64,000 bases of DNA from an uncultured Gammaproteobacteria bacterium (GCA_964354025.1 CAYGXQ010000001.1:5963-69962), one strand, 5' to 3'; positions 11,722-38,706 are shown, numbered from the stretch's first letter. The notes: generated by a model not told the origin, from the letters alone. Translations and numbers: made by a program.

Positions 11722-11775
11722 GGTTACTCCTCAAAGTGGCGTATTTACCTTCCAGATAATATAATAGGTAGTAAT

Positions 11776-11847: not shown

Positions 11848-11853
11848 CAAAAA

Positions 11854-11939
11854 GGAGAGTTGGCTGAGCGGTTCAAAGCGACGGTCTCGAAAACCGTTCT
11901 CCCGTAAGGGAGGCGCAGGTTCAAATCCTGCACTCTCCG
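11854..11939 (+). tRNA. tRNA-Ser (anticodon CGA)
   Basis: 86 nt, long variable arm, anticodon loop CUCGAAA, T-loop GUUCAAAUC. It lies 6 nt after the tRNA-Arg. Confidence 0.8.
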
Positions 11940-12050
11940 CAAAATCTGAAAATTTCAATTAATATAGATTGTTATATAGCCTCAAAACTCATTTTAGGTT
12001 CTAACACTATGACGGGCTGTCTCAAAATTCCTAATTCTTAAAATATCCGT

Positions 12051-18200: not shown

Positions 18201-18893
18201 TTATTTCCTTGATACAGTCTTTGCTTGGGAAAAATAAATCTTCAGTCTCAAAAGGAAATGCATCACACAGGCTGTTCCAAACACGATAGATAATTCCACA
18301 TGATTATAGAGCATATTGCCGCCTGAAAAATTATAAAACCAGGGATATTGTTTTGCCAAAATCATGATAATTCCAAAACCAAAGGAAGGGATCAGTCCCA
18401 ACAGTAAAATGCTGTCCCAAATGAGATTATGGATTTGTCTTCGTAAAACCTTCAGGGTAAACAGATATGCCACTATCGTTCCTAATAAAGGAAGATACAA
18501 ATTATAATTTCCGACAGGATTTGTTGTTTTCACATTTATCAGAGTATCGGTTGGCTTGATTTGTCCTCCGGTATCTAAAATGCCGATAAGATATTGATTC
18601 AATAAACTGTTGGCCCGGCTGCTATGGCTTTGGCCTCTGCCGTTTTTATCATTATAATCAGTGGTGGCGTCTTTGCCGCACCAGGACCGAATATCTAAAT
18701 TACTGTCATGGTCGGTCAGATAGTTGGTCAGATCATAGACGTTTTGATTAATAATCATCCAACAATCTTTTGGATTGTTATGTTGGGCAACCTGATTTGA
18801 AGTATAAGAAGTTTGGGCATACGTATTGGTAGAAAGTAAAAGAGTCATGATTAATGAAACCAAAAATGCAGTTAAAAGAGAGATTTTTTTCAT
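18201..18893 (-). CDS. Membrane protein with an N-terminal extracytoplasmic cytochrome b5-like domain
   Basis: A signal peptide is followed by HNNPKDCWMIINQNVYDLTNYLTDH...GKDATTDYN. This resembles the cyt b5 heme-binding fold, but HPGG is replaced by HDSN. C-terminal TM helices follow. Confidence 0.4.
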   Translation of the reverse strand: MKKISLLTAFLVSLIMTLLLSTNTYAQTSYTSNQVAQHNNPKDCWMIINQNVYDLTNYLTDHDSNLDIRSWCGKDATTDYNDKNGRGQSHSSRANSLLNQYLIGILDTGGQIKPTDTLINVKTTNPVGNYNLYLPLLGTIVAYLFTLKVLRRQIHNLIWDSILLLGLIPSFGFGIIMILAKQYPWFYNFSGGNMLYNHVELSIVFGTACVMHFLLRLKIYFSQAKTVSRK

Positions 18894-19005: not shown

Positions 19006-20301
19006 ATGAAAATAAAATCTGTGAAAGCCCTGGAAATTCTTGACAGTCGGGGGAATCCGACAGTGGAAACATTTATCACTTTGGCCAACGGTTGTGTCGG
19101 CTGGGCGGCGGTTCCCTCAGGAGCTTCAACCGGAAAGTACGAAGCGGTCGAACTGCGGGACGGCGACAAAAAACGATACCTGGGCGCCGGAGTTTTAAAA
19201 GCAGTAGCAAATGTTAATCAGAAAATTTCCAAAGCGGTCCGCGGACTTGACGCGGGTGACCAAAAAACACTTGATAGGACAATGATTGAACTGGACGGCA
19301 CGGAAAATAAAGCTCATCTGGGAGCCAATGCTATTTTGTCTGTTTCTCTAAGCGCGGCCCGGGCACAGGCAGTTTCGGAGAAAAAAGAACTCTATCAGTA
19401 TCTGACTAAATTCAATCCCCATTTTTCCGGAACATACCTCATGCCGATACCGGAAATGAACGTCATGAACGGCGGCAAACACGCCAACTGGGCCACTGAT
19501 ATCCAGGAATACATGTTGTTTCCCATCGGCGCAAAAACAATTGCCGAAGCCATCAGGATGAACGCGGAGGTCTATCAGCTTTTGAAAAAAATCATCAAAG
19601 CCAAAGGTTATGCCATTTCCGTTGGCGATGAGGGCGGCTTCGCGCCGAATGTCGGATCCAATGAAGAACCGTTTCAACTCCTTTCCGAAGCGATTAATAA
19701 ATCCGGATATCTGCTTGGAAAAGATATTTCTCTGGGAATCGATTCAGCTGCCTCCGAATTTTACAAAGACGGCAAGTATAAGCTGAACAAAGAGGGAAAA
19801 ACAGTCACCAGTGACGGGTTGGCTGATTTTTATGCCAAATTGGCCACCAAATACCCGATTGTCTCCATGGAGGATATCTTTGCCGAGGACGATTGGAATG
19901 CCTTCCAAAAATTTACCAGGTCACAGGGCCATAAAATCCAAATTGTCGGTGATGATCTGTATGTCACCAATAAAAAAAGGTTCCAAAGGGGAATTGCGGA
20001 AAAAACCACCAATTCCATTCTCATCAAGTTAAACCAGATCGGCACTTTGACCGAAACCGTCGAGACTGTTCTTTTGGCCAAAGAAAACGGAATGACCGCC
20101 ATTGTTTCCCACCGGAGCGGCGAGACGGAAGATCCTTTCATTGCCGATTTTGCGGTGGCCATGGGTTGCGGGCAGATAAAAACCGGGGCCCCGGCCCGGT
20201 CTGAACGGGTGGTCAAATACAACCGGCTGATCAAGATCGAAAATGATTTAGGTCCGAAAGCGGTTTATCCAACGGGAAACCTGAAAGCTTTTTTAAGCTG
20301 A
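19006..20301 (+). CDS. eno: Enolase (phosphopyruvate hydratase)
   Basis: N-terminal EILDSRGNPTVE plus catalytic motifs, at full length of 431 aa. Confidence 0.95.
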   Translation: MKIKSVKALEILDSRGNPTVETFITLANGCVGWAAVPSGASTGKYEAVELRDGDKKRYLGAGVLKAVANVNQKISKAVRGLDAGDQKTLDRTMIELDGTENKAHLGANAILSVSLSAARAQAVSEKKELYQYLTKFNPHFSGTYLMPIPEMNVMNGGKHANWATDIQEYMLFPIGAKTIAEAIRMNAEVYQLLKKIIKAKGYAISVGDEGGFAPNVGSNEEPFQLLSEAINKSGYLLGKDISLGIDSAASEFYKDGKYKLNKEGKTVTSDGLADFYAKLATKYPIVSMEDIFAEDDWNAFQKFTRSQGHKIQIVGDDLYVTNKKRFQRGIAEKTTNSILIKLNQIGTLTETVETVLLAKENGMTAIVSHRSGETEDPFIADFAVAMGCGQIKTGAPARSERVVKYNRLIKIENDLGPKAVYPTGNLKAFLS

Positions 20302-21078
20302 AGAATTGGCGTAGGTTGTGACTTTGTCTATTCTTTCCTCACGGGTTAGGGGACTGGTAATTCCCGGTCCGCCGATACAGCCTCCGTCGCAAAAGAGGAT
20401 GTCCAACAGACGGACTTTTTTGTTTGTCTCAAAATTTTTGATGGCCTCCTGGCAATTATTCCAATTGGAAATAATCTGGACTTCTCCGTTGGTGAATTTA
20501 CTTGTCAGGCCACTGCTGTGGGACAATCCGCCGTCGATAGGGTAAAGCCTGGTCAGGCCGGGCTCGGAAATGTCGAATTTATCATCAGGATTTGAATCTT
20601 GCCGTATATTGAAATGTTTAAAAACCTGGTTTAGTTCATTATAAGTAACGACCAGGATTTCCAACTCGGGGAAATCCTCAGTGGCTTCCAGTTTCTTGAC
20701 GATGCACGGTCCGATAAAAACCGGCCGGTAGCCGGGATATTTCTCCCTGACGATTTTTGCGGTGGCCACCATCGGAGAATCGACGTTATAGGTCAGGTAT
20801 TTTTCATACTGGGGCATTTGTTTTCGGATCATCCTCACCACTGTCGGACAGGGACTGGTGATATAGCGGGTATTGGGATTCTCCTGCAGAAGTTTTAAAA
20901 GTTGCTCATTGGTTCTTTTGGCACCGGCGGCCACTTCAAGTGTATAGGTAAAACCGAGCTTTTTCAGCATGGTGATGATGGCTGGATAACCAAACATAAT
21001 CGGAAAAGAAGGGGCCACCATGGCGGCCAGTTTGGCCTTTTTCCCGATAAGTTCGATTAAAGTAGCGGTTTCATTCAT
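20293..21078 (-). CDS. [FeFe]-hydrogenase large-subunit C-terminal (H-cluster) domain-like protein
   Basis: TSPCP, GPCIVKK and FCDGGCIGGPG correspond to the L1 TSCCPxW, L2 MPCxxK and L3 ExMxCxGGCxxGGG motifs. L1 has a single Cys. No ferredoxin-like N-terminal domain is present. Confidence 0.55.
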   Translation of the reverse strand: MNETATLIELIGKKAKLAAMVAPSFPIMFGYPAIITMLKKLGFTYTLEVAAGAKRTNEQLLKLLQENPNTRYITSPCPTVVRMIRKQMPQYEKYLTYNVDSPMVATAKIVREKYPGYRPVFIGPCIVKKLEATEDFPELEILVVTYNELNQVFKHFNIRQDSNPDDKFDISEPGLTRLYPIDGGLSHSSGLTSKFTNGEVQIISNWNNCQEAIKNFETNKKVRLLDILFCDGGCIGGPGITSPLTREERIDKVTTYANSSA

Positions 21079-23757: not shown

Positions 23758-24009
23758 TTAGTTATAAACATTAGACCGGTGGCCGGCGGTGATAATGTTG
23801 ATAACATTATCCTTTTTGTTTATTTTATAAATAATTCTAAATACTCCTATCCGATATGAATATTTTCCTAAAAGCTCTCTTCCGAGTGGTTTGCCCAAAT
23901 ATGGATCCTGTTTAAGAGTCTCGATGATTGAGGCCAATGCATTTTGGTGGATCTGTTTAATTTGTTTCAGTTGATTCTTTGCTTCCGGAGAAATGATTAT
24001 TCTATACAT
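23758..24009 (-). CDS. ParE/RelE-family toxin
   Basis: 83 aa. YRIGVFRIIYKI...ITAGHRSNVY is typical of RelE/ParE. It overlaps the upstream antitoxin. Confidence 0.7.
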   Translation of the reverse strand: MYRIIISPEAKNQLKQIKQIHQNALASIIETLKQDPYLGKPLGRELLGKYSYRIGVFRIIYKINKKDNVINIITAGHRSNVYN

Positions 24010-24284
24010 TTAGCTTGAAGCTTGAGACTTTTTTTAACTTCTTCCCAATCCAATCCCTTTCCCTCAGCAAGCTCTTTTTCCCCCTTTTTTATTGCATGCA
24101 TAAGAGTTTTATCGGCTAGAATTTCATTGGTTTCTTTCCAGGATTCATATTCTGTCGCAGAGATCAGTACCGCCGCGGGAACACCGTTGACAGTAATGAT
24201 GTATTCATCCAGAAGCCGGTTAGCTTTTTCCACAAGCGTAGTCAGTTGTTCCCTGGCTTTGGTAATTGGAAGAGTTTTAGTCAT
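23997..24284 (-). CDS. Phd/YefM-family antitoxin
   Basis: 95 aa. LPITKAREQLTTLVEKA...ITVNGVPAAVLIS is the Phd/YefM fold signature. Confidence 0.7.
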   Translation of the reverse strand: MTKTLPITKAREQLTTLVEKANRLLDEYIITVNGVPAAVLISATEYESWKETNEILADKTLMHAIKKGEKELAEGKGLDWEEVKKSLKLQAKCIE

Positions 24285-24369
24285 AATTTGATTATTAATT
24301 GATCTTACATAATTCTGTACAGATTGTCAACAGATGTAGGATATTGGTATAATCAGTCACTCTTTTTAT

Positions 24370-25320
24370 ATGAATTTAAACTCTATTTTTTTCAAAGAAC
24401 AAGTAATCAAATCTGTCAGGAAGTTTTTTGCTGATCAGAAATTTCATGAAGTGATCTCGCCGGTTCTGGGTAAATCGGTTCCCTACGAGCCGAATATTTA
24501 TCCCTTTTCTACAGTTTGGGAAAATGGCAAAAATAGAGAGATTTTTTATCTAGCTACTTCACCGGAAGGTTATATGAAAAAAGTTCTCGTCCAAGGCATC
24601 GGCAATTGTTTTACCATCGGATATTCTTTTAGAAATCAGGAAGATTTCAGCCCGATCCACCGGCCGGAGTTTCTGATGCTTGAATGGTATAGGGAAAATT
24701 CAAATTATAAAGAAATAATAGAAGACACAAAAGAGTTGATAAAATTTATTATTAATAAAATCGGTTACCGGGGAAAGAAGATAAAAACGGATAATAAATG
24801 GCCGGTTTTTTCGATGATCCAACTTTTTCAAAAATACAGCGGTTTAGATCTGGAAAAAATTATTGGCGATGAAGAGATGATCAAAGCGGCGGTGGCAAGA
24901 AACTATAATATTAAAGGCGCAAACTGGGAACAGCTTTTTAATCAAATATTTCTAAATGAAATCGAACCGCATTTAGGCAGCAACCCGTTTTTTATCATTG
25001 ATTATCCTGCGCGGATTTCTCCCCTTTGTGCCAAAAGACGGGATAAACCAAACTTTGCCGAGCGTTTCGAGTTTTACCTTGACCGGACGGAAGTGGGCAA
25101 CGGCAATACGGAAAATACAGATGTGGAAGATGTAAAAAAAACTTTTTTGGCAGAAAAAAAACAAAGAGAGAAATCCAGGATGTCGGTTTCAGCGGTTGAC
25201 GAAGAATTTTTGGAAGCTTTGGGGAAAATGAAAGAAAAAAATTACAGCGGAATGGGACTGGGAGTTGACCGGTTGATAATGATTTTGGGAGAGATCAAAG
25301 ACATAGGAGAAATCTACTGA
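24370..25320 (+). CDS. Class II aminoacyl-tRNA-synthetase catalytic-core paralog without an anticodon-binding domain (EpmA/GenX-like, or AsnA-like)
   Basis: Motif 2 FRNQEDFSPIHRPEFLMLEWY and motif 3 GMGLGVDRLIM, in only 316 aa. Confidence 0.55.
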   Translation: MNLNSIFFKEQVIKSVRKFFADQKFHEVISPVLGKSVPYEPNIYPFSTVWENGKNREIFYLATSPEGYMKKVLVQGIGNCFTIGYSFRNQEDFSPIHRPEFLMLEWYRENSNYKEIIEDTKELIKFIINKIGYRGKKIKTDNKWPVFSMIQLFQKYSGLDLEKIIGDEEMIKAAVARNYNIKGANWEQLFNQIFLNEIEPHLGSNPFFIIDYPARISPLCAKRRDKPNFAERFEFYLDRTEVGNGNTENTDVEDVKKTFLAEKKQREKSRMSVSAVDEEFLEALGKMKEKNYSGMGLGVDRLIMILGEIKDIGEIY

Positions 25321-25361
25321 ATATTCTTGTTTTATAAATAATTATCTGGAATAATGAACAT

Positions 25362-26750
25362 ATGGCCGTACAACTTGACTACCTTGCTCCATCGGGCTGG
25401 CAGCCGGAGAATCCGGATGAAAATTACGTTTTGGCCCAGTATAAACTGGAACTGGCGGACGGGATTGATAAAAGCATGTTTGTCCAGGCGGCCGCCTCAA
25501 TCGCCGCCGAATCCTCCACCGGTACCTGGACCAAAGTGGATGCGGGACCGGATTCGGGTATAAAAGTCGCCGAGCAATATAAAGCGGTCGTTTATGACAT
25601 TGATGAGGCAAGCCGTCTTTTCAAAGTCGCATATAAAAAGGATCTCTTTGAAAGAGATAATCTCTCCGGTCTTTTGGCCGGGCCGGCCGGTAACATCGCC
25701 GGAATGAAAATGGTCAAGGCTATGCGGCTTTTTGATATCCGTTTCCCCAAAGTGATGGTTGAGGCTTTCCCTGGACCAAGATACGGCGTTTTGGGAGTGC
25801 GTGACCTTTTGAGCCAAAGCGATGAACAAAGACAAATGCCGATTTTAGGCACTGTCGCCAAACCGAAAGTCGGAAGAACTGCCGGTGAGCAGGCTATTTT
25901 GGCTAAAAGATTGTGGACGGCCGGCGGAGGACTTTACGATTTCATCAAAGATGACGAGAATCTGACCAGTTTGCCTTTTAATAAATTTGAAGACCGCGTC
26001 CGTTTAGTCCATCAAGTCCAAAAAGAGCTGGAAGGAAAAGGCGGCCCCAAAAAACTGTATCTGTGCAACATCACCCATTCCAATCTCGATGTGATGTTGG
26101 AAAGAGCCAACTTGATCAAAGAAAACAGCGGCAGATGTTTAATGATTGACGCAGTGGTTACCGGTTTTTCCGCAGTACATACCCTCAGGTTGAAAAATCC
26201 GGATTTGATCATCCATGCCCACCGGGCGATGCACGGTTTTTTGACGCGGGAAAGCGGTAAAGATTTTATGGGCAGCGGATCTTTGCAGGGATTCAGTATT
26301 TCCATGATTTTACTGGCAAAAATATACCGATTATTGGGAGTGGATTCCCTGCATTCCGGTTCCCCGAAGGCCAAAATGGAGGATTACGGTGAAAGCGGGG
26401 AAATCATGCGTTTACTGACAACGGAAATTACTCCGCCAAATTCCAATTATCATTCTTTAGGGCAAAACTGGTTTGGGAAGTATAAGGTTTGGCCGGTGGC
26501 CTCCGGCGGATTGCATCCGGGAGTGATGGATAAAGTGATGGAAGCCTTCAGCAAAGATTGTTATATCCAGCTCGGCGGCGGAGTTTTGGGGCACCCGCAA
26601 GGGATAGAACGCGGAGTGGAAGCGGCCATTGAGGCAAGAAAAACTGTAATGAAAGGAATGACAATCAATGATTATGTCCGGAAATACCCTGAGTCTGCCC
26701 TTTCTGCCGCCGTCAAACTTTGGGGTACCGAGCCGAAGATTGTTTACTGA
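25362..26750 (+). CDS. rbcL: Ribulose-1,5-bisphosphate carboxylase large-subunit homolog (form II/III-like)
   Basis: GGLYDFIKDDENL, the active-site Lys context MPILGTVAKPKVG, and HAHRAMHG. Size is 462 aa. Confidence 0.85.
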   Translation: MAVQLDYLAPSGWQPENPDENYVLAQYKLELADGIDKSMFVQAAASIAAESSTGTWTKVDAGPDSGIKVAEQYKAVVYDIDEASRLFKVAYKKDLFERDNLSGLLAGPAGNIAGMKMVKAMRLFDIRFPKVMVEAFPGPRYGVLGVRDLLSQSDEQRQMPILGTVAKPKVGRTAGEQAILAKRLWTAGGGLYDFIKDDENLTSLPFNKFEDRVRLVHQVQKELEGKGGPKKLYLCNITHSNLDVMLERANLIKENSGRCLMIDAVVTGFSAVHTLRLKNPDLIIHAHRAMHGFLTRESGKDFMGSGSLQGFSISMILLAKIYRLLGVDSLHSGSPKAKMEDYGESGEIMRLLTTEITPPNSNYHSLGQNWFGKYKVWPVASGGLHPGVMDKVMEAFSKDCYIQLGGGVLGHPQGIERGVEAAIEARKTVMKGMTINDYVRKYPESALSAAVKLWGTEPKIVY

Positions 26751-26778
26751 TAGAAGAGGAGAGTATAATATAAAATCT

Positions 26779-27987
26779 ATGGAAGAATTGGACAGGCTAT
26801 ATCCTTTGATTACGAGCGAAGACCTGACGAAGTACGCCAAACTTTTCCAAAGGGATTTGATCGCCGCTTTGCACAACCAACAGTCTTCGCTTCCTTCCAT
26901 CCTCAATCCCATCCATAAAATTTCAGCCAAAGAGGGTTTTGGAGTGGCTCTCTCCATCGGCGGGACCAACGGTTATGTCTCGGCCTTCCGGATCTCCCGG
27001 AAAAAGGTGATCACTTTCTTAAACCGGAAAATATTTAATCTGCCGGAAAAAACGACCAGGGAAGAACTTTTTCATTTAATCACTAAAAATGTTTTTGCGG
27101 TGGCCTCCGGCCGGAAGAAAAAATTCCCCATAGGTATCGGTCTGGCATACACGCTGAAGCCGGTGCTTCACCACCGCTTCATCGACGGCACTTTGATGTA
27201 TATGTCCAAGGGCAGGGAGATTGAGGGACTGGTGGGACTGCGGGTCGGACAGGAATATCATAAATTTTTAATCGATAAATACGGGATTGATACGGAAGTG
27301 GCGGTGGCCAACGATGCCATTTGTCTGCTTTTGGGCGGAGACGGAGTGGAAATTGCCGGAGTGGTTGGGACAGGACTTAACTTCGCCTATTGGGAAAAAA
27401 GGACGGCCATTGCCCCTTTGAAACTCGGGGAGCTTAATAATTTCTGCCAGGGGGATATCGCCGTCAACATTGAGTCAAATAATTTTGACAAGATAGAGGG
27501 GACGAAGTTAAGAAGCATTGTCGATAAAGAAAGTGAAGATGTTGGATATTCTCTGGCGGAAAAAGAAGCCTCAGGTGCTTATCTGTACCGGCTGTTTAAT
27601 GCCGGAAAAGTGAAACTTTTGGGCAAAGATTTTCCCGATCTGTCTTCCACCGATCAGCTGAACGATATTCTGACGGGCGCTTATATTTTTCCGAAAAATA
27701 TCAGTCAGGAAAAAATAAAAAAGGCCGGACTTTTTGCCCAGCGACTGTTACATCGGAGCGCCCAGATTACGGCCATCCAGTTATGCGGGATCTTCATGAA
27801 AATCGGCAAAACCAAAGGAATAGTATCGGTAGTTATGGAAGGCGGGATTTTTTGGAAAGCGAAAAACTACGCTTCCTTGGTTAACCTTTACGTCAATATG
27901 ATCTTGCCGGAAGTGATCCCTTCTTTTGCCCGGCTTTTTGGAAGCAGTCGTCGCGGAATGGCCATTCTGGCCAGCAGCTTGATCTAA
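26779..27987 (+). CDS. Hexokinase-family sugar kinase
   Basis: SIGGTN, VAVANDAICLLLG, VVGTGLNFAYWE and VNIESNNFD map onto the hexokinase phosphate-1, connect and adenosine motifs. The start is set at an ATG preceded by GAGGAG. Confidence 0.55.
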   Translation: MEELDRLYPLITSEDLTKYAKLFQRDLIAALHNQQSSLPSILNPIHKISAKEGFGVALSIGGTNGYVSAFRISRKKVITFLNRKIFNLPEKTTREELFHLITKNVFAVASGRKKKFPIGIGLAYTLKPVLHHRFIDGTLMYMSKGREIEGLVGLRVGQEYHKFLIDKYGIDTEVAVANDAICLLLGGDGVEIAGVVGTGLNFAYWEKRTAIAPLKLGELNNFCQGDIAVNIESNNFDKIEGTKLRSIVDKESEDVGYSLAEKEASGAYLYRLFNAGKVKLLGKDFPDLSSTDQLNDILTGAYIFPKNISQEKIKKAGLFAQRLLHRSAQITAIQLCGIFMKIGKTKGIVSVVMEGGIFWKAKNYASLVNLYVNMILPEVIPSFARLFGSSRRGMAILASSLI

Positions 27988-28205: not shown

Positions 28206-31200
28206 ATGAGTTCACCGGAACACGGACATCATGGAGGAGACGCCAAGCCGGATTTGATGAAAAGGCTGGCTCAATTTTTTAGGGCGCTTTTTCAAAATAA
28301 AGCGGAGAAAGAGATGGCTGAAAGGGCAGCCGCGGGAGAAATCGCTAAGCGCGATTACGCCAAACACGAAACTGAAGCAAAATGGGAAGAGGAAAGAAGA
28401 AAACGGGAAGAAAGAGACCGGACACGAAAATACCATGAAGCCAGAAGCGCGGAAGTGGCTGAAGCCGAGGTGGAAGTAACCAGACGGCAAAACGCACAGA
28501 AAGTGAGAGATAAGCTGCAAGATGTAATCAATGATACCTCCGGTCAAAACGATATCGAAGGTTCAAGATATCTAATGGCGGAGATAAGAGGAAATACACA
28601 TGTACAAGAAGCCTTGAAGCATCTAATTGACGAAAGTCCCAACGCTAGGGAAGTCATCAGGGAGTTTTTGACGCAAGATAAGCGGGTTCACGGGAGAAGT
28701 CGGGAACTGATCAAACTGACACAGGCGCTTTTGTATGAAGCCCAAAAAACCGGTGACATAGGCAACTTGGATTCTTTTATTACCCAAGTAAAAAAACAAA
28801 TTGACGGACTTTTGATAGATGAATATTCCGCGGCAAATAGAGCAGCTAGGGGAAGGAGGGGGCAGGGATTTAATACTTTCAAGGAATTCTTAGAGGAGGA
28901 ACCGGGAATCGTGATGACTGATGACGAACAAAAAGAACTACAAACGCCTGTTTATTATAAAGATAAAGATAATAAAGATACAGATAGAGTCAATGAAACG
29001 GAAACTACGGAGAAATGGAAAAGAATAGTTCAGGAAATGGTGACAGAACCTCGAGTTGGTACCGTCCGAGCTTTTACTGCTGCGAAAGTAGATAAATTTG
29101 CCGAGAATTATGGCGGCAATATTCCTGACAGTCAAGTTGTCATTGATAAGATGGTGGCGCCGCTTGACCGGGTTTGGGGCGAGCTTGAAAGGAAAGATGT
29201 TGCCGGACAGTTAACGAGTGAAGATTTAATCAAATACAGCCGACAATTAGTCAGGGAAGAATCGCAGATCCGGCCAACTGATGTGGCGCCGGGAAGTGAT
29301 GCTTATTTTGCCGCTTCTCGAGCAATGGGGGATTACATGAATAATAAATTGGAAATTTTAGCCAAGAAGCTGGAAGAAAAATTAAAAGCGGAGAAAGTGG
29401 TCATGAAAGAAGGGATTAACGATGAGACGGAATTTTTGGCGGAAATGGCCAAAAGAAAAGGCCGGATAGGAGATTTGTTTGAACTTAACCCGGCGATGGA
29501 AGAACTTTTATACGGATTGGATGATAAAAGCCGTAAGTTTCGGGATAGAGTTTTTATGAATATCCACTCCAGAGTTTTATCCGATCAACGGAATTCCTCA
29601 AACGATAACTTCGGCCTTTACGAGCGGGCGGATTTTTCGACTATAATTGATCTTTTAAAAGTAGGATTGGAAAAATTTAAGGTAATGGAAACAGGCAGAA
29701 GTTTGGGTGAAACTCTAAGCGACCATTACAATAATCTCAGCAACGCCATCCGCCAGTGCCGGGACATTGATTTTTGGGCCTCCCAACCGGCTGCCAATTC
29801 GGAGAACTTCAACAAATCTCTCGGCATGTTCCAAAATGAGTATGTCAAAGAAGCTCTTAACATCCCTGGGGTGATAGTGGCTTTCCGGGCTTTTGAGGAT
29901 AATCTTCGCAGTATTATCGCTTCCAACGACGGTTATCTGCCGCCGGCTCTCATGGAATACGATGCGACCAGCGGACGCTCTTTCTGGGATAACATGTCCC
30001 GGGCACAGGTTGAGAAAATGGTCGGCATGGGAGTGGTCCCGGGTATCAAAAGAGATGAAAGAAATTATTATCTTCATGTCAGAAATAAAGACGGCTATTC
30101 AGTCGAGATGGACTTTAAAAATCCTTTGAAAAAAGAGGATGTTTCCTCCGATGAGTATCTGATGTATATGACTTTGGCCAAAGGGATCGGAATGGCCACT
30201 GCCCGGTATCTGGAAATGATTGCCCAGACGAAAGTCCCGGGGTCGGACAATCCGACGCTGGGTTTGGATACTTTCCACAGTATGCCTTATGAGGGAATGG
30301 CGAAAGCGATGAACTATTTTAATGTCTATATTGAGAAATGGAAAATGGGTTCATATAAATACGGCCATCTCATGAATATGCTGATACCGGATGAAAAAAA
30401 TAGGATGACAATAGACCAAAATGATTCTACTTCAGCCATCCGCGCTTATATGGCTTACCAGGACGGCACTTTTGAGGAAAAATTCGGCACTGATGCCAAA
30501 AGATTTATTGACCTGACTAATTTCTCCGGCATTTCCTCGGCTATAGGCAAAGACACAACCTGGCGGCAATATGACATGACGCTTGACTGGGAGGACCGGA
30601 AAAAAGAATTTTTAGGCGGTCCGACGCAGCTGGTTTTAAGCAAAAGATACGCGGAGGAGAAAGTCAAAGACCATCTGGTAGTGGCCAAATATCGGGAGCA
30701 ATACCGGCAGGAACTAATCAGCCAAAAATCCGGACTGCCGACCAGCGGCGCCGGTTTTGATAAGCTTTGGCGGGAATACGGGAAAAATAGATATGCTTAT
30801 AACATTGAAAAGGAATGGGAAAAACTTAACGGGCTTGACCCTAAAAAAGGCAGACAGCATACGGCTTTATGGCATCAGACAGACCATTTGATAGGAGCAT
30901 ATAGAAATGCCTTGAAGGCGAGAGTCTGGGTAGAGATGGCCATGAGAAATCCTCTGGTGGTGGCTCACAGCTTAAAAGTCGACCTTCCTTTGGTTGGGGG
31001 AGAGAAACGGAAGAAACAGATGACTCTTCATACCATGCTGGTACAGGATATTTTAGGCATTCCGCCGGAAGATACGAAATACGGTGAGGAAGTCGGTAAA
31101 TCCGCTACCAGAAAATCACCGACAAAACAGCAAGAACAATACATGATTGACGTCATGAATCTGGAGTGGGATCTGGCGGCAGTACGGGAGAAAGCCATCA

Positions 31201-32180
31201 ATGGTGAAGATACAGAATATGTGAGAGATCTGACCGATAAGGATTTTAAGGTTATTGGAGATGAAAAAAGGAAAGAACAGGCTTTGGCTTACTGGAGAAG
31301 AGTGAAAAAAGTAATTTTAGGCAGCGAAGATTCGGCTGAAGCGGATAGATTGATTAAACATTTTGGTTTGGGTCTGATGGAAAATCAGGTGGATTACGAA
31401 TGGGATCATCATCACATCCATGAATTGATGACCGATAAAAAGGACGGCTTTTTGGATAAATTAGATAAACAGTTAAATCAAAGTCCGATGTTTACGATTG
31501 TCGGTTCAGACGGCCAACAGATCGAAATCCCTTTTCTTTTGAAAAAAGCGGTGAAGATGGAGCCGGAGTGGATTTTAGGAACTGACGATATGGTTTTTAA
31601 CAAAATGGATATCCTCAATCTCGGTTCAAGACAGCTGATAAGAAGAGGAGGCGATATTGCCGCCCACCAGGCCGGCGGCGATGCCGTTATTCAGTATCTC
31701 CTGTATGGTTTAACGCCAACGCCAAATAAGGAAGAAGCGGTGAAACTGCTTGCCAAACTTCGTGATGCCTACTCCGGCGATATGATTGAAATCGGTTGGT
31801 CAGTTGGATCCAATCTTGCTTACATGACTGACCGGCTTTATGCCTGGGATTGGAATCATTATGGGCAGTCGGTCGCGCAAAGAGATGTCTGGGGTACAAG
31901 AAGAGGAGTGGCCTCCTGGTTAGCCAATGAAAGACGGGAATGGTGGGATACTTTGGAACACGCTGATGTTTTTCCGCCGAACGCGCATTCTTACTTTTAT
32001 AACATCGATGATAAAGTAAATATCCATACAATGAGAAAATGGTGCCACGCGGATAATTCGGATGTCTGGAAAGAAATCATTGCCCTGGGAGTTTTACTGG
32101 CTTTGGCGATCACCATCTACCGTGCCTTCACCGCCCCAAGTGAAGAAGAAGAGGGCGGCGGTAAAGGCGGACACCATTAG
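28206..32180 (+). CDS. Giant hypothetical protein (1324 aa), with a charged coiled-coil-like N-terminus, one C-terminal TM helix, and an EEEEGGGKGGHH tail
   Basis: A single long ORF with CDS-like composition; no catalytic motif recognised. Convergent with the VirB6-like gene. Confidence 0.6.
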   Translation: MSSPEHGHHGGDAKPDLMKRLAQFFRALFQNKAEKEMAERAAAGEIAKRDYAKHETEAKWEEERRKREERDRTRKYHEARSAEVAEAEVEVTRRQNAQKVRDKLQDVINDTSGQNDIEGSRYLMAEIRGNTHVQEALKHLIDESPNAREVIREFLTQDKRVHGRSRELIKLTQALLYEAQKTGDIGNLDSFITQVKKQIDGLLIDEYSAANRAARGRRGQGFNTFKEFLEEEPGIVMTDDEQKELQTPVYYKDKDNKDTDRVNETETTEKWKRIVQEMVTEPRVGTVRAFTAAKVDKFAENYGGNIPDSQVVIDKMVAPLDRVWGELERKDVAGQLTSEDLIKYSRQLVREESQIRPTDVAPGSDAYFAASRAMGDYMNNKLEILAKKLEEKLKAEKVVMKEGINDETEFLAEMAKRKGRIGDLFELNPAMEELLYGLDDKSRKFRDRVFMNIHSRVLSDQRNSSNDNFGLYERADFSTIIDLLKVGLEKFKVMETGRSLGETLSDHYNNLSNAIRQCRDIDFWASQPAANSENFNKSLGMFQNEYVKEALNIPGVIVAFRAFEDNLRSIIASNDGYLPPALMEYDATSGRSFWDNMSRAQVEKMVGMGVVPGIKRDERNYYLHVRNKDGYSVEMDFKNPLKKEDVSSDEYLMYMTLAKGIGMATARYLEMIAQTKVPGSDNPTLGLDTFHSMPYEGMAKAMNYFNVYIEKWKMGSYKYGHLMNMLIPDEKNRMTIDQNDSTSAIRAYMAYQDGTFEEKFGTDAKRFIDLTNFSGISSAIGKDTTWRQYDMTLDWEDRKKEFLGGPTQLVLSKRYAEEKVKDHLVVAKYREQYRQELISQKSGLPTSGAGFDKLWREYGKNRYAYNIEKEWEKLNGLDPKKGRQHTALWHQTDHLIGAYRNALKARVWVEMAMRNPLVVAHSLKVDLPLVGGEKRKKQMTLHTMLVQDILGIPPEDTKYGEEVGKSATRKSPTKQQEQYMIDVMNLEWDLAAVREKAINGEDTEYVRDLTDKDFKVIGDEKRKEQALAYWRRVKKVILGSEDSAEADRLIKHFGLGLMENQVDYEWDHHHIHELMTDKKDGFLDKLDKQLNQSPMFTIVGSDGQQIEIPFLLKKAVKMEPEWILGTDDMVFNKMDILNLGSRQLIRRGGDIAAHQAGGDAVIQYLLYGLTPTPNKEEAVKLLAKLRDAYSGDMIEIGWSVGSNLAYMTDRLYAWDWNHYGQSVAQRDVWGTRRGVASWLANERREWWDTLEHADVFPPNAHSYFYNIDDKVNIHTMRKWCHADNSDVWKEIIALGVLLALAITIYRAFTAPSEEEEGGGKGGHH

Positions 32181-32196: not shown

Positions 32197-33726
32197 CTAC
32201 TTGTGAGTTCCTTTATCTCCACCTCCGAAGATACCGCTGGCCATCATTTTCAACTGGCCCATATAGTAGAACTGGCTGGCCGCGCCCATGGCCGTCTGGA
32301 AAGAACCGGTCAAAGGCGCCATGATGGTGCCCGGAGAAACAGGCAGGGCCGGTTTAGGCGCGAACATCTTTTTGATCGAGGCAATCAAAGTCGGGGCCAT
32401 GAAAAGGACACCGATGCCGATAAAAGCGGAAAAAACAGGAGGAGTCCCTATGCCCAAAAGAGGCGGTTGCCAGGCCGTGTTTTCCGGATTTTGGGAAGTC
32501 AAAAACATGGCAAACATCAAGACGGCGGCGGTGGCCGGGAAGACGACCAGATTAGCAATGACATTTAAAATCCAGTCGGTAAAAGCGGATTTGCCGGGGA
32601 CAGCCTCCGCCAGAAGCTGGATCGGGCCAATGATCAAAGAAATCATCACCTGGATATAGGAATTCACCAGAAGAAGTACCAGTCTGATGAAAGTAAAAAG
32701 CAGTCCCAGAGCCAAAATCAATATAATAATAGCTGATGGAGCAGCAGCGACAGCTGCTGTGCCCAAACCGATAGTAACGAGACCGGGAATCATAGAAATG
32801 AGTCCAATTACAACAGAGATACCGCCCAGTTGACCTCCATAACCTTTGATAAAATCGTCTACAGATCGGAAGCCGCCGCTGAAAACCGATCCGGCTAAAG
32901 TGCCTAACCCGCCGGTCATATACTGGCTTTGCAGTTCCGCCACTTTTGAAGCAAAACCGCCGCCCATGCCCTGAGCCATGACAGAGATCAGGATAGCCAT
33001 GACCAGATACATCATGTCAATCAGAAAACCGACGATCGGATAAGAAAGGGTGATCAGGACTAAAGTCAGAATGATTTTTGGTAAAGCCGCCTGAAGAGAG
33101 ATGACTGTTTTCGGATCAATTTTCATCCGGAAGATGATCATGAAGCCGATGGCCACCATGACGATAATCAAGATAGCGTAAGCAATATTTCGGGAAGTTT
33201 TCCAAAGAGAAAGAAGCGGGGTCATGGCGGCAAAACCGATCCCTTGGGCAAAAACAGGCTTGATAAAGCCGGCGTTGGCCAGATAGTCACGGGCATAATA
33301 GGCAAAACTGGCCGGAGGATTAGCGTAAATGGATGCTATAACTGTGCTGATATTTCCCAGAGCCGTTTGCTGCGGATTACAATTGTTATCATCAGGAAGG
33401 CAGACTAACAAACTAGTAATAGCGGCCACTTGGACATTAGCGATAAAGATGCTATGAGGGACCGCAGAAATATCAGTTTGTCCTTCTTTGGCTTTTTCCT
33501 CAGTAATATTTAAGTCGTTGACGATTTCCTTCAAACCCATCCTCCAATATCTTGTAGCGGTAGCGGCCGTAGCTTCTTTGGGGAATGAGAAGAATGGAAT
33601 TGCGGCAATAAATATCAAAAGTAAAAATCTGTAGATTTTGGGCAGACGGAGCATATTTTTATTATTCTGCTTTTTGACGGTGGTGTCAATCCTGTATTGT
33701 GTTATTGTCATCCCGACCGATTCCAC
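32197..33726 (-). CDS. VirB6/TrbL-like polytopic membrane protein (putative type-IV-secretion channel component)
   Basis: Signal/TM followed by an extracytoplasmic segment, then 8 or more TM helices and a Gly-rich tail. It sits directly downstream of six VirB2/TrbC-like genes. The true start is probably the ATG at 33711. Confidence 0.45.
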   Translation of the reverse strand: MESVGMTITQYRIDTTVKKQNNKNMLRLPKIYRFLLLIFIAAIPFFSFPKEATAATATRYWRMGLKEIVNDLNITEEKAKEGQTDISAVPHSIFIANVQVAAITSLLVCLPDDNNCNPQQTALGNISTVIASIYANPPASFAYYARDYLANAGFIKPVFAQGIGFAAMTPLLSLWKTSRNIAYAILIIVMVAIGFMIIFRMKIDPKTVISLQAALPKIILTLVLITLSYPIVGFLIDMMYLVMAILISVMAQGMGGGFASKVAELQSQYMTGGLGTLAGSVFSGGFRSVDDFIKGYGGQLGGISVVIGLISMIPGLVTIGLGTAAVAAAPSAIIILILALGLLFTFIRLVLLLVNSYIQVMISLIIGPIQLLAEAVPGKSAFTDWILNVIANLVVFPATAAVLMFAMFLTSQNPENTAWQPPLLGIGTPPVFSAFIGIGVLFMAPTLIASIKKMFAPKPALPVSPGTIMAPLTGSFQTAMGAASQFYYMGQLKMMASGIFGGGDKGTHK

Positions 33727-34156: not shown

Positions 34157-34537
34157 TTAATAACCCGACGGCAACTTGATACCTCTCAGGATCGAGATAC
34201 CGAAGAATTGTTCGATGACGATCATCAGTCCCCAAGCGGCAAAGACGATGAAAAGGCCGAGGATGGCCGCCTGGATTTTGTGCTGGGCGGCTTCCACTTT
34301 ACTCTTGTCTCCACCGGAAAGGATCCATTCAACACCGGCGATAAGAAGATAGATGAAAGTCGCCAGAGCAGCCATTACAAGGATAAGACCGACCGCACCG
34401 CTGACTAATTTACCCAAATCGCCTGTTCTCAGATTTGAAGGACTAGGGATGATAATAGGAATGTCTTCAGCGAAAGCGGTTGTTTTTGAGAACAAAACCA
34501 GCGATAAAGTAGAAAGACCGGCGATAATTTTTTTCAT
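34157..34537 (-). CDS. TrbC/VirB2-like small membrane protein, paralog 5
   Basis: N-terminal signal peptide; LSGGDKSKVEAAQHKIQAAILGLFIVFAAWG. Confidence 0.5.
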   Translation of the reverse strand: MKKIIAGLSTLSLVLFSKTTAFAEDIPIIIPSPSNLRTGDLGKLVSGAVGLILVMAALATFIYLLIAGVEWILSGGDKSKVEAAQHKIQAAILGLFIVFAAWGLMIVIEQFFGISILRGIKLPSGY

Positions 34538-34596
34538 AAAATTTTTCCTCCCCTTATAAAATTATTATGACAATGTTTTGACTTGTTTGTCAAGCT

Positions 34597-34953
34597 CTAA
34601 AATAAAGTCGGCAGTTTTATCTGAAAACCGCCGCCTCCGCCAAGAGGCGAAATGCCCAAGAATTGCAAAACAACAACATACAATCCCCAGGATGCAAAAA
34701 GAATGAAGAGTCCGACGATGGCATTGGTAATTCTTTTTTGCGCTCCTTCCAGCGCTGCCTTATCTCCGCCTGAAGAAATCCATTCTAAACCGCCCTGGAG
34801 GAGATTGACAAAAGCCCAGATAGAGCCGGCGGTAAGCATGACGCCAACCAAAGCGGCAAAAAATTTGGCAAAAATCTCCGGCGCTTTTTCTGGATTTTGG
34901 CCGGAAATACCGGTGACAACTGGATTGGTGATTGGTGAGATTTGATAAATCAT
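34597..34953 (-). CDS. TrbC/VirB2-like small membrane protein, paralog 4
   Basis: ISSGGDKAALEGAQKRITNAIVGLFILFASWG. Confidence 0.5.
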   Translation of the reverse strand: MIYQISPITNPVVTGISGQNPEKAPEIFAKFFAALVGVMLTAGSIWAFVNLLQGGLEWISSGGDKAALEGAQKRITNAIVGLFILFASWGLYVVVLQFLGISPLGGGGGFQIKLPTLF

Positions 34954-34955
34954 AG

Positions 34956-35369
34956 TTAAAATCCGATATTCTGTAAAACTGCTCCCGGATTTAAGATGTT
35001 CAAACCGATGATTTTGCCGATCAATCCGGTAATTACCCAGGCGGAAACAACAATGATCAAGCCGATTAGGGCATTAACGATTTTATTACGGGCTTCTTCA
35101 AGATTATGCTTGTCGCCGCCCGCATTCATCCAGCCGTAACCGGCGATAATTATCTGGAAGATAAACCAGAGCGCGGCAACTATTGTTAAGAAACCTATGA
35201 TGCCGCTGAGAGCTTTGTTTAACTGGTTGCCGACTTTGGCGCTGTCGCCAATACCCAAATTGCACATCGCTTTTGCGATCTCTCCGAAACCATCACCGCA
35301 ACCCAAACCTTTGCTTGAAGGCGGAAGCGGGGCGGCCGCGTAGACAGCACTGATTAATTTATTTATCAT
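34956..35369 (-). CDS. TrbC/VirB2-like small membrane protein, paralog 3
   Basis: MNAGGDKHNLEEARNKIVNALIGLIIVVSAW. Confidence 0.5.
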   Translation of the reverse strand: MINKLISAVYAAAPLPPSSKGLGCGDGFGEIAKAMCNLGIGDSAKVGNQLNKALSGIIGFLTIVAALWFIFQIIIAGYGWMNAGGDKHNLEEARNKIVNALIGLIIVVSAWVITGLIGKIIGLNILNPGAVLQNIGF

Positions 35370-35740
35370 TGTAATTTCGGTTGTAAAATAGCCGTCGGAT
35401 CTTTGAAAAACAATATACCGAATACCGCCGCCAGCAAAAATGAAGCAACGATAATCACCAATCCCAAGAGAGTTTGCCAGATCCGGTCCAAGGCTTTGGT
35501 GACTTTTTTCGCGTCGCCGCCGGCCGACATATAATCAAAGCCGGCAATAATCAGATTGACGAATGAATAAAGTCCGGCGACAACAAAAACCAGTTTAAGG
35601 ATGGAATTCAGTAAAACCATGATACCGGTTAGCTCTCCGCCTGATCCAATCCCTTCAGGCATATAGGGAGGACGGGAAATGCAACCGATCGGGTCATTCG
35701 GATCGCAGGCGGCCAGAAGGGTGGTTAAAAGATAAATCAT
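35366..35740 (-). CDS. TrbC/VirB2-like small membrane protein, paralog 2
   Basis: MSAGGDAKKVTKALDRIWQTLLGLVIIVASF. Confidence 0.5.
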   Translation of the reverse strand: MIYLLTTLLAACDPNDPIGCISRPPYMPEGIGSGGELTGIMVLLNSILKLVFVVAGLYSFVNLIIAGFDYMSAGGDAKKVTKALDRIWQTLLGLVIIVASFLLAAVFGILFFKDPTAILQPKLQ

Positions 35741-36925: not shown

Positions 36926-37555
36926 ATGGCTGATTTTGTCATCAAAATACTCAGACAATCTTTCCTGTTCGGTAGAAATGTTGCCGGCTGTTTGAACAAT
37001 CCTTATATTACTTTTCGGAAAATAGCGCTGGAAAAGAATAATTTTTGGCCGACCGCATTTATTACCCTTTTCTCGCTAGCCTATTTTGAATTTGCCGGTA
37101 TCATCAGAGCCGGTTTAGGCAACCCCATTTTTTTGACGTCGAAATTTAACAGCTTGGTATTGACTTCCTCCATCTGCTTTATCGGCTGCATTTCGCTTTT
37201 TTATCTTTTGGGAAAGATAATGAAGAAGACCGGCAGTTTCAGGACTTTGACCGTGCTTTGGTCTTACTCCCTTTTGCCGACCTTAATTTGGTTTTTTACC
37301 ACTTCCTGTTTGTATCTTATTTTGCCGCCGCCGCGGACGATGAGCATCCTGGGTAAAATCTATAGCGTATTCTATATCGCTTTTTCCATCGCTCTTCTTT
37401 ATTGGAAAATCATCCTTTACTATTTGACCTTGAGGTTCGGCTTGAAAATGGAAATCGGGAAAATTATGCTTGTCTCGGTTGTCTTTGTTGCCTATCTTGG
37501 ATTATTTGCATTGATTACATACCGTTTGGGAGTTTTCCGGATTCCGTTTATATGA
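36926..37555 (+). CDS. Hypothetical polytopic membrane protein
   Basis: 5 TM helices; the stop overlaps the hmgA start (ATGA). Confidence 0.35.
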   Translation: MADFVIKILRQSFLFGRNVAGCLNNPYITFRKIALEKNNFWPTAFITLFSLAYFEFAGIIRAGLGNPIFLTSKFNSLVLTSSICFIGCISLFYLLGKIMKKTGSFRTLTVLWSYSLLPTLIWFFTTSCLYLILPPPRTMSILGKIYSVFYIAFSIALLYWKIILYYLTLRFGLKMEIGKIMLVSVVFVAYLGLFALITYRLGVFRIPFI

Positions 37556-38706
37556 AATTACGACAATATAAAACCATTGAAGAAAGAAGAAAGTTGATCG
37601 AAGAAAAAACCAAGCTTTGTTTTGAGTCTATCAATATTTACCCTAAAGATTTAGAAGAAGCGCAGTTTCGAAACTGCGAAAATATGATCGGAGCAGTTCA
37701 GATTCCGCTTGGCATTGCCGGACCGTTACTGGTAAAAGGTCAGGAAGCCCGGGGAGAATATTTTTTGCCCCTAGCAACGACAGAAGGAGCTTTAGTGGCT
37801 TCAGTCAACCGCGGCTGTAAAGCAGTATCTTTAGCCGGCGGAGTAACTGTTTTTTCGGAAAATGCCGGGATGACCCGGGGTCCGATTTTCAAAACCAAAA
37901 ACCTTGAAGAGAGTTTTATGCTTAAAAAATGGCTGGAAGGGCATTTTGATTTGTTATCTCAAACCGCTTCTTTGACTTCGTCACATATCAAACTTCTTGA
38001 CGTTTTCATGAAAATAGTCGGCCGGAATGTTTATATCCGTTTCTCATACGATACTGATGAAGCGATGGGGATGAATATGGTGACTATTGCTACTGATAAA
38101 ATAGTGAAGTTGATAGAACAAAAGACGGGAACAGTCTGTCTTTCGCTGGCCGGCAATTTTGACACGGACAAAAAACCGTCATGGTTAAATTTTATTTTAG
38201 GCCGCGGCAGACAGGTTTGGGCAGAAGCGTTAATAAGTGAAAAAATAGTGAAGGAGGTTTTAAAAACTACTCCCCAAAAAATCCATCAGGTCGTTTTGGA
38301 TAAATGCCATTTAGGATCAATCGTCAGCGGTTCGATGGGATATAACGCCCATTTCGCCAATATTATTACCGCTCTTTTTATCGCTCTCGGTCAGGACGTT
38401 GCCCACACAGTTGAAGGAAGTCTGGGGGTGACTGCGACAGAAATAGCAAACGGAAATCTTTATATGACCGTCTATCTTCCGGATTTGCCGATCGGGACGG
38501 TGGGAGGAGGGACGGTTTTACCTTCCCAAAAAGAAGCGCTGAAGATTTTGGGAGTCGATCAAGAGAATGGAAAGAAAAACAGCCAGACTTTAGCAGAAAT
38601 TGTTGGAGGAGCCGTATTGGCAGGAGAATTATCACTGCTGGCTGCTTTGGCGCAAGGAGAATTGGCAGAAGCTCACGCGAGTTTGGCAAGAGGAAAAAAT
38701 GCATAA
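37552..38706 (+). CDS. hmgA: HMG-CoA reductase (class I-like)
   Basis: ENxIGxxxxPLGxAGPL, ATTEGxLVAS, DAMGMNMV and GTVGG motifs. The start is the internal ATG at 37552. Confidence 0.85.
   Translation: MKLRQYKTIEERRKLIEEKTKLCFESINIYPKDLEEAQFRNCENMIGAVQIPLGIAGPLLVKGQEARGEYFLPLATTEGALVASVNRGCKAVSLAGGVTVFSENAGMTRGPIFKTKNLEESFMLKKWLEGHFDLLSQTASLTSSHIKLLDVFMKIVGRNVYIRFSYDTDEAMGMNMVTIATDKIVKLIEQKTGTVCLSLAGNFDTDKKPSWLNFILGRGRQVWAEALISEKIVKEVLKTTPQKIHQVVLDKCHLGSIVSGSMGYNAHFANIITALFIALGQDVAHTVEGSLGVTATEIANGNLYMTVYLPDLPIGTVGGGTVLPSQKEALKILGVDQENGKKNSQTLAEIVGGAVLAGELSLLAALAQGELAEAHASLARGKNA

Follow-up and report, generated by a model that had tools for sequence, protein, structure and literature searches.

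Three consecutive genes in a 64,000-nucleotide stretch of DNA deposited under the name of an uncultured Gammaproteobacteria bacterium (GCA_964354025.1, CAYGXQ010000001.1:5963–69962; hereafter the window) raise the question of whether neighbors of such different kinds belong to one system. They encode a class II aminoacyl-tRNA synthetase paralog, a ribulose-1,5-bisphosphate (RuBP) carboxylase (RuBisCO), and a hexokinase-family kinase. A prediction made earlier from the sequence alone (the original prediction) had read the last two as a coupled pair, suggestive of a variant pentose/hexose-phosphate route. Comparative synteny supports a different answer: the three genes are probably independent in function and were juxtaposed by a lineage-specific rearrangement, and the conserved partner of the kinase is the ~1300-aa gene downstream of it, not RuBisCO.

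All three genes are intact, and every motif quoted for them in the original prediction was recovered in their translations. Their open reading frames (ORFs) follow one another on the plus strand at 24370–25320 (316 aa), 25362–26750 (462 aa), and 26668–27987 (439 aa as the longest ORF), and are read here as follows:

24370–25320, plus strand: homolog of the EpmA (PoxA/GenX)-like elongation factor P (EF-P) lysine ligases, 316 aa (from Pfam tRNA-synt_2, NCBIfam, and homolog context)
25362–26750, plus strand: RuBisCO large subunit, form III-like, 462 aa (from Pfam, NCBIfam, residues, and an insertion)
26779–27987, plus strand: compact hexokinase-family sugar kinase, 402 aa (from Pfam, AlphaFold2, Foldseek, and residues)

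Judged by its gene content, the window comes from a Gottesmanbacteria/Microgenomates genome of the candidate phyla radiation (CPR). Depositors named the nearest homologs as Candidatus Gottesmanbacteria and Microgenomates, and the window carries tandem T4SS-pilin genes, a CPR hallmark.

The kinase is conserved with its downstream gene

Gene order was compared across 80 kinase-centered loci from GTDB species genomes and 31 RuBisCO-centered metagenomic loci, together with contigs obtained by exact-protein look-up. Window proteins were mapped onto these loci by tblastn, locus ORFs were clustered, and gene-order maps were drawn. Lineages were dereplicated at 97% identity, and kinase lineages were counted where at least 5 kb of upstream sequence was available.

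The Gottesmanbacteria maps share a single order, which runs dnaA (reversed), rnpA, yidC, jag, wzy, nadD, nadE, RuBisCO where present, zero to seven variable genes, the kinase, the ~1300-aa gene, p509 and pilin genes (both reversed), and a sigma factor gene. The window counterparts of this order's right-hand part, and the genes at the left boundary of the trio, are:

28206–32180, plus strand: 1324-aa protein, the kinase's conserved downstream partner (no Pfam match; a C-terminal hydrophobic segment was read in the translation)
32197–33726, minus strand: 509-aa conserved protein, p509 (no Pfam match; part of the kinase/large protein/p509/pilin block)
34157–35740, minus strand: four tandem T4SS-pilin genes with more small paralogs nearby (Pfam T4SS_pilin; right conserved flank of the synteny block)
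23758–24284, minus strand: ParE toxin/Phd-YefM antitoxin pair (left boundary, where the ancestral nadD/nadE flank appears to have been replaced)

A homolog of the 1324-aa protein lies downstream of the kinase homolog in most Gottesmanbacteria loci with downstream sequence and is directly adjacent to it in most; p509 and then the pilin cluster come after it in most of these loci. The gap between the two genes is only 27 nt in locus L001.

The association with RuBisCO is far looser. Of 16 kinase lineages, 5 have RuBisCO in the 10 kb upstream of the kinase, at a distance of 7 kb or less, and the kinase directly follows RuBisCO in 2 of 25 RuBisCO lineages, namely the window and its 91–92% identical relative L005. 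At one and the same site RuBisCO is present in some loci and absent from others that are otherwise collinear (L015 versus L018, and L085 versus L003), and the kinase keeps its place where RuBisCO is absent. Elsewhere among the 25 lineages, the direct neighbor of RuBisCO is a convergent phosphoribulokinase (PRK) gene (four), an AAA_33 P-loop kinase gene (four), cluster c31 (three), an epimerase gene (two), or cluster c55 (two); IMPase, glycoside hydrolase, and c32 genes account for one each, and unrelated singletons for five.

The genes between RuBisCO and the kinase form a variable island. One set comprises IMPase, HAD, ROK, SIS, tagatose-bisphosphate-aldolase-like, and PfkB genes; a second consists of an epimerase, GalT, and unknown genes, and a third of a GDE/trehalase-like glycoside hydrolase and an unknown gene. 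Pfam assigned no family to the recurrent island genes c26, c27, c32, c44, and c71. The AAA_33/zeta-toxin-like P-loop kinase, 183 aa long, stands directly after RuBisCO in four dereplicated lineages (L087 at 11396–11947, L094, L095, and L098), and an IMPase/FBPase-family gene follows RuBisCO directly or within one or two genes in L001/L020, L015, L095, and L115.

These maps suggest how the trio may have arisen. In ancestral Gottesmanbacteria, RuBisCO would have stood just after nadD/nadE and the kinase just before the ~1300-aa gene and the pilins, with zero to seven genes between them. The window lineage would then have lost the interval genes and exchanged its left flank for the EpmA-like gene and the toxin–antitoxin pair. 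A contig whose RuBisCO is 91% identical, L090, has the same EpmA left flank yet carries two island genes (c32 and a glycoside hydrolase) straight after RuBisCO, a retention that fits a recent loss in the window lineage. The window, L005, L090, and L091 are the only loci in which EpmA adjoins RuBisCO, and the nadD/nadE flank of relatives found no tblastn match in the window with NadE as the query.

Layout and authenticity of the trio

The EpmA-like gene is separated from RuBisCO by 41 nt, and RuBisCO from the kinase by 28 nt if the latter starts at 26779. The original prediction had let the kinase overlap the end of RuBisCO, an overlap of 83 nt that appears because the longest ORF, from 26668, was taken. 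A true overlap of the two genes is ruled out: the N-termini of homologs line up with the ATG at 26779, an independent contig calls the same 402-aa product, and the corresponding spacer in the nearest relative, L005, measures 190 nt. From these alignments the kinase most likely starts at 26779, clear of RuBisCO.

A candidate promoter precedes the first gene:

24324–24353, plus strand: promoter-like site TTGTCA-18-TATAAT, its −10 element extended by TG and its end 17 nt short of the ATG of the EpmA-like gene

With 11 of 12 matches it is the top-scoring site of the region; promoter-like sites overall were no more numerous than in shuffled sequences, so that it serves as a lead only. No terminator-like site was found in the two short intergenic gaps, and an Rfam scan of the window returned a tmRNA and tRNAs only, leaving the intergenic regions of the trio empty. 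The EpmA-like, RuBisCO, and kinase genes may be co-transcribed from this site.

Given that the source is a metagenome-assembled CPR genome, and that the left flank of the window is unlike the nadD/nadE flank of relatives, the adjacency could have been produced by assembly or binning, as in a chimeric contig. Both junctions, however, were found again in independent assemblies. Logan contig L089 contains the RuBisCO–kinase junction at 100% identity; the run from the ZIP transporter through ParE/Phd and EpmA to the start of RuBisCO has the same junction in L123, with an identical EpmA; the order EpmA, RuBisCO, kinase, large protein is found at 91–92% identity in L005, a contig of an NCBI metagenome-assembled genome; and the EpmA–RuBisCO junction is present in L090 and L091 as well. 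No break in composition was seen either. Because the junctions recur in this way, the arrangement is genuine; an assembly chimera is ruled out, and an artefact of this kind retains next to no probability.

The RuBisCO is form III-like

The 462-aa protein matches Pfam RuBisCO_large_N (PF02788, 99 bits) and RuBisCO_large (PF00016, 192 bits). It had been described as form II/III-like, a classification that must be revised: the NCBIfam type III model (TIGR03326) reaches 379.5 bits and the form II model 223, and the best matches in the Protein Data Bank (PDB) are the form III enzymes 8dht and 1geh (260–272 bits), with the II/III enzyme 5mac at 190 bits. The same scores rule out a form II/III enzyme of the Methanococcoides burtonii type. 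Relatives with 63–73% identity (P0138, P0204, and P0222) bear the depositors' name "RuBisCO long chain, Form III-like". The alignment to 8dht also revealed an insertion:

26259–26291, plus strand: 11-residue insertion KDFMGSGSLQG, RuBisCO residues 300–310 (8dht has a gap of 11 columns here when aligned by HMMER)

Insertions in III-like RuBisCOs, mostly 11 aa long, are a hallmark of that clade (Jaffe 2019, PMC6389311).

Residues were mapped to spinach numbering by motif. The catalytic and RuBP-binding set is invariant in 22 relatives and comprises E50, T55, W56, N111, K167, K169, K196, D198, E199, H287, R288, H331, K338, S381, G383, and GGG405–407. With this full set present, and with the MtnW and OiaX models of RuBisCO-like proteins far below the type III score, a form IV RuBisCO-like protein is ruled out. 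On the type III scores, the 11-aa insertion, the catalytic set, and the depositor names, the window enzyme is classified as a bona fide form III-like RuBisCO of the published CPR/DPANN type. It would carboxylate RuBP to two molecules of 3-phosphoglycerate (3-PGA), and it appears to be a laterally mobile enzyme. Gottesmanbacteria are already listed with RuBisCO of both the III-like and the III-c type (Jaffe 2019, PMC6389311).

A compact hexokinase-family kinase with an altered phosphate-1 motif

The kinase belongs to the hexokinase family proper, as had been proposed. Both Pfam domains exceed their gathering thresholds (GA), with Hexokinase_1 (PF00349) at 46.3 bits (GA 24.3) and Hexokinase_2 (PF03727) at 64.4 bits (GA 24). 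In an AlphaFold2 model of high confidence (pLDDT 91.3, pTM 0.90) the structure agrees: the top 50 PDB matches in Foldseek are without exception hexokinases or glucokinases of the eukaryote type, led by rice HXK6 (6jj7_A, E 3e-27, TM 0.85), with TM values of up to 0.86 among them. A ROK or BadF glucokinase is ruled out by this Foldseek result and by the lack of any ROK or BcrAD_BadFG Pfam match.

That the family is uncommon in bacteria also held. NCBIfam has no model for it, and matches at E ≤ 0.001 numbered 784 of 1.84 billion cluster representatives; in CPR, hexokinase is rare and probably anciently transferred, and phosphofructokinase (PFK) is rare too (Jaffe 2020, PMC7304191). About 100 homologs in Gottesmanbacteria share 53–91% identity with the window kinase. 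The next homologs, at 28–37% identity, are shorter (~357 aa) and come from Levy-, Roizman-, Woese-, Davies-, and Beckwithbacteria. Many GTDB loci among L033–L084, which carry a short hexokinase of Microgenomates type, are titled "uncultured Gammaproteobacteria bacterium" (third party annotation, TPA, assemblies); this title is almost certainly a mislabel of the records and not a true host range.

Across 40 representatives at 25–73% identity, the kinase residues G61, G62, N178, D179, G197, G199, N201, E232, E261, K262, and G355 are invariant, and K144, T198, and E354 nearly so. Read from the alignments, N178, D179, N201, E232, E261, and K144 correspond to N204, D205, N231, E256, E290, and K169 of human glucokinase, its catalytic base and hexose ligands. 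The phosphate-1 aspartate of the DLGGTN motif, by contrast, is replaced by S59 in the HMMER alignment to rice HXK6. Among 120 close homologs, 113 have S, A, or V here; among 146 clade representatives, 115 have V, S, A, or T, and only two have aspartate.

The substitution admits another interpretation, in which the protein has the hexokinase fold without being a conventional ATP:hexose 6-kinase; it might use a different phosphoryl donor or metal arrangement, or serve as a sugar sensor or regulator in the manner of the non-catalytic plant and fungal hexokinase-like proteins. Besides the near absence of aspartate from the clade, this interpretation can draw on the lack of an NCBIfam model and of any characterized member found in the literature. 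It is nonetheless improbable. The catalytic base D179, together with N178, N201, E232, E261–K262, K144, the phosphate-2 loop (GTG), and the adenosine motif (GG), is invariant or nearly invariant across 25–73% identity, as would be expected of an active kinase under purifying selection. Some ASKHA kinases, acetate kinase for example, work without an aspartate at the phosphate-1 position.

The conserved residues suggest that the protein is an active sugar kinase whose nucleotide/Mg site is unusual, and that it most probably makes hexose-6-phosphate. Its substrates would be hexoses, plausibly sugars released or imported by the island products in relatives. The literature offered nothing usable on the hexokinase phosphate-1 aspartate, or on PRK and RuBisCO in Gottesmanbacteria after the work cited here, and the residue pattern and synteny of this kinase clade appear not to have been described before.

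An EpmA-like synthetase paralog

The original prediction had recognized the first gene of the trio as a class II synthetase core lacking an anticodon domain, and had left its identity open among EpmA/GenX, AsnA, and a novel amino-acid ligase. The first point was borne out: Pfam tRNA-synt_2 covers residues 7–315 of the 316-aa protein at 152 bits, and no anticodon-binding domain was found. Of the three identities, EpmA is retained. The EpmA models score highest in NCBIfam (TIGR00462 genX, 245.1 bits against an equivalog cutoff of 286.9; NF006828, 218.7 bits against a cutoff of 264), and the lysyl-tRNA synthetase (LysRS) core models lie under both, at 200 and 183 bits. PDB sequence matches are to LysRS cores and GenX/PoxA, at ~116–125 bits. 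AsnA, at only 18 bits, is ruled out.

Two CPR homologs at 49% identity supply the genomic context. In L121 the order is Radical_SAM, EpmA-like, EF-P, and in L122 it is Radical_SAM, EpmA-like; the EF-P of L121 passes TIGR00038, and its loop NPGKGS holds a lysine. Both homologs examined thus stand behind a radical-SAM gene and one stands ahead of efp, and a new amino-acid ligase was rejected in favor of an EpmA-like one. The window itself contains no efp, by Pfam on ORFs of at least 110 aa and by tblastn with EF-P, and no tblastn match to a radical-SAM protein from the related loci. Because the EpmA models score best and because of the radical-SAM/efp rows around the homologs, the 316-aa protein is assigned as a predicted EpmA-type EF-P ligase homolog with no tie to carbon metabolism. 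Such a ligase would adenylate a lysine-type amino acid and then transfer it to the lysine at the tip of the EF-P loop.

These two rows lie at L121 7191–9544 and L122 7089–8990, and their radical-SAM genes are small, at 264–300 aa. The L122 protein has a CxxxCxxC motif, and both proteins have a cysteine-rich C-terminus. Among the NCBIfam matches listed for them, those found were weak and to SPASM/twitch-type maturases, and none was to EpmB/KamA. EF-P modification of the EpmAB type is known in many phyla; one survey (PMC11388002) makes no mention of CPR.

RuBP supply and the case for coupling

Pfam was run on essentially every window ORF of at least 110 aa. No Glycos_transf_3 (DeoA), IF-2B (E2b2), PRK, or oxidative pentose phosphate pathway (PPP) domain was found within 24 kb upstream or 36 kb downstream, in agreement with the earlier remark that the neighbors of RuBisCO are not AMP phosphorylase or ribose-1,5-bisphosphate isomerase. 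Searches of the window by tblastn with PRK, NadE, IMPase, GalT, epimerase, PfkB, ROK, SIS, glycoside hydrolase, and AAA_33 kinase proteins from related loci likewise gave no match. RuBP would be supplied from outside the window, through deoA/e2b2 nucleotide salvage, PRK, or both.

In other lineages PRK is close at hand. The PRK gene lies directly after a form III-like RuBisCO on the opposite strand in L099, L100, L101, and L103, and the RuBisCO-adjacent protein scores 281.6 bits with NF005655 (cutoff 236) and 140 bits with Pfam PRK. A route from glucose-6-phosphate (G6P) through the oxidative PPP to ribulose-5-phosphate (Ru5P) and, by PRK, to RuBP has been proposed for Gottesmanbacteria, in which PRK was reported (Jaffe 2019, PMC6389311).

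On this basis the kinase and RuBisCO could be a functional module. The hexokinase would make G6P, the oxidative PPP would turn it into Ru5P and CO2, PRK would form RuBP, and RuBisCO would re-fix CO2 to yield two 3-PGA; the PFK step, which most CPR lack, would be bypassed, and the window would hold the most compact form of the module. The 5 of 16 kinase lineages with RuBisCO no more than 7 kb upstream, joined by L005, are consistent with such a route, as are the four convergent PRK genes and the recurrence of IMPase/FBPase-family, PfkB, SIS, aldolase, and AAA_33 kinase genes beside RuBisCO. The 2019 proposal describes the same route, and PFK and hexokinase are both rare in CPR (Jaffe 2020); the possible co-transcription in the window, and an enolase gene ~5 kb upstream, would also suit it. 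Yet the kinase keeps its locus without RuBisCO within 10 kb in the other 11 of the 16 lineages, RuBisCO occurs with no kinase nearby in L087, a contig of 1.1 Mb, and PRK, G6P dehydrogenase, and 6-phosphogluconate dehydrogenase are all missing from the 64-kb window. Proximity is moreover limited to one phylum-level group in which gene order near dnaA is strongly conserved, so that vertical synteny suffices to explain it, and the stoichiometry of the route itself is unfavorable: GAPDH and PGK are skipped, and no net ATP is gained up to pyruvate. The module is considered unlikely, with perhaps a fifth of the weight of belief placed on it. The claim of a RuBisCO-coupled sugar kinase fails for strict adjacency, found in 2 of 25 lineages with the kinase site preserved where RuBisCO is absent, and survives as a looser link through the 5 of 16 lineages, the island of sugar genes, and the PRK genes of four contigs.

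A bolder version is more doubtful still. In it, compact hexokinase, PRK, and form III-like RuBisCO would provide PFK-poor Gottesmanbacteria with a glycolytic bypass that re-fixes the CO2 it releases; the window would be the most condensed trace of this bypass, and the aspartate-less loop would mark a mechanistically distinct, mainly CPR subfamily of hexokinases.

The preferred reading, that of independent genes brought together by rearrangement, has several observations to contend with, and all of the following weigh against it. The same-strand gaps of 41 and 28 nt without a terminator-like site lead one to expect co-expression here. In several lineages no more than 7 kb separates RuBisCO from the kinase, the genes between or beside them often encode sugar or sugar-phosphate enzymes, and PRK adjoins RuBisCO in four contigs, so some functional relation is possible. 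That genes were lost from the island, and not inserted elsewhere, is a conclusion drawn from a few contigs. With regard to the first gene, the EpmA-like protein falls under the NCBIfam equivalog cutoff, and the radical-SAM partner in its relatives has no listed match to an aminomutase of the KamA/EpmB type, so that the EF-P chemistry may differ.

Implications

The trio is not a new system: taken singly, its genes are nothing unusual in this group, and the RuBisCO is of a type already known from these hosts. A striking arrangement of CPR genes is probably explained by rearrangement around a variable island with sugar-metabolism genes, which is a clarification more than a discovery. The synteny map does show that the form III-like RuBisCO, as a laterally acquired gene, has a fixed point of insertion in Gottesmanbacteria, close to the origin of replication. 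The variable neighbors of RuBisCO there, including sugar-phosphate enzymes and in some lineages PRK, lend modest independent support to the 2019 suggestion that RuBP derives from sugar phosphates besides nucleotides.

The compact, mainly Microgenomates hexokinase clade, in which all sugar ligands are kept and the canonical Mg-ATP aspartate is almost always missing, should be easy to study biochemically, and it is relevant to the question of how glucose is taken in by organisms in which upper glycolysis is usually absent. Similarly, the row of radical-SAM, EpmA-like, and EF-P genes in two CPR relatives hints at an undescribed route of EF-P modification.

Other features of the window

To the left of the trio lie ParE/Phd, a ZIP transporter, an LTD protein, a hydrogenase-like fragment, and enolase; to its right, the 1324-aa and 509-aa proteins, the T4SS pilins, a sigma factor, and a mevalonate-pathway operon. 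The enolase gene (19006–20301) is set between a cytochrome b5-domain protein (18201–18893, minus strand) and a hydrogenase-domain protein (20293–21078, minus strand), the latter a 261-aa protein consisting of the [FeFe]-hydrogenase large-subunit C-terminal domain alone. The mevalonate/isoprenoid cluster at 37402–45913 is apparently complete, with HMG-CoA reductase, an HMG-CoA synthase-like protein, thiolase, two GHMP kinases, diphosphomevalonate decarboxylase, polyprenyl synthase, and undecaprenyl diphosphate synthase. A row of hisG, hisD, hisC-like, HAD phosphatase, hisB, hisH, and hisF/A-type genes occupies 52818–58941, beside tRNA-His; biosynthetic operons are not common in CPR.

At 1011–1965, SmpB is followed by the tmRNA, and the predicted tag peptide, ANKSADEAEAILAFRANQSYQFAFAPSLSA, is unusually long at 30 residues. 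Three paralogous AAA_14/DUF4143 ATPase genes (3572–5002, 13284–14567, and 61119–62423) and two Fic-domain genes (6333–7205 and 59592–60644), with a PIN gene and the ParE/Phd pair, make up a dense load of accessory or defense-type genes for a small genome.

Comparison with known systems

At the protein level the window RuBisCO does not differ from the form III-like RuBisCO of CPR/DPANN (Wrighton et al. 2016; Jaffe et al. 2019, PMC6389311). For form III-c RuBisCO, deoA/e2b2 neighbors have been emphasized, whereas the window enzyme stands beside EpmA and a hexokinase-family gene. The AMP pathway of Thermococcus kodakarensis (DeoA, E2b2, and form III RuBisCO) has the RuBisCO lineage in common with the window, 1geh and 3a12 being among the best PDB matches (260 bits), and differs in that no DeoA or E2b2 homolog is found within the 64-kb window. 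The partial Calvin cycle of PRK and RuBisCO, or PPP-fed RuBP, proposed for Gottesmanbacteria (Jaffe et al. 2019) concerns the same group of organisms and the same type of RuBisCO; PRK stands beside this type in four contigs, and a candidate glucose-phosphorylating enzyme beside the RuBisCO of the window. Unlike that scheme, the window lacks PRK and the genes of the oxidative PPP, and its linkage of kinase and RuBisCO is not conserved.

The kinase shares with eukaryote-type hexokinases and glucokinases (rice HXK6, 6jj7; human glucokinase, 3fgu) the two-lobe fold (TM 0.85), the catalytic aspartate, all hexose ligands, and the phosphate-2 and adenosine motifs. It departs from them in its low identity (~17–22%), in its length of 402 aa as against roughly 450–485 aa, and in belonging to a clade that almost universally lacks the canonical phosphate-1 aspartate and whose named homologs are mainly Microgenomates CPR.

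EpmA/PoxA/GenX, the EF-P-(R)-beta-lysine ligase (TIGR00462; PDB 3a5z and 3g1z), is, like the 316-aa protein, a LysRS-derived class II core without an anticodon domain. It is the best-scoring NCBIfam family for the window protein, one CPR homolog of which adjoins an efp gene with the target lysine in its loop. The window protein differs in scoring below the cutoff (245 versus 286.9 bits) and in being detached, within the window, from radical-SAM and efp genes. In place of EpmB/KamA, the partner of EpmA, its two CPR relatives are paired with radical-SAM proteins of 264–300 aa that have no listed match to lysine 2,3-aminomutase.

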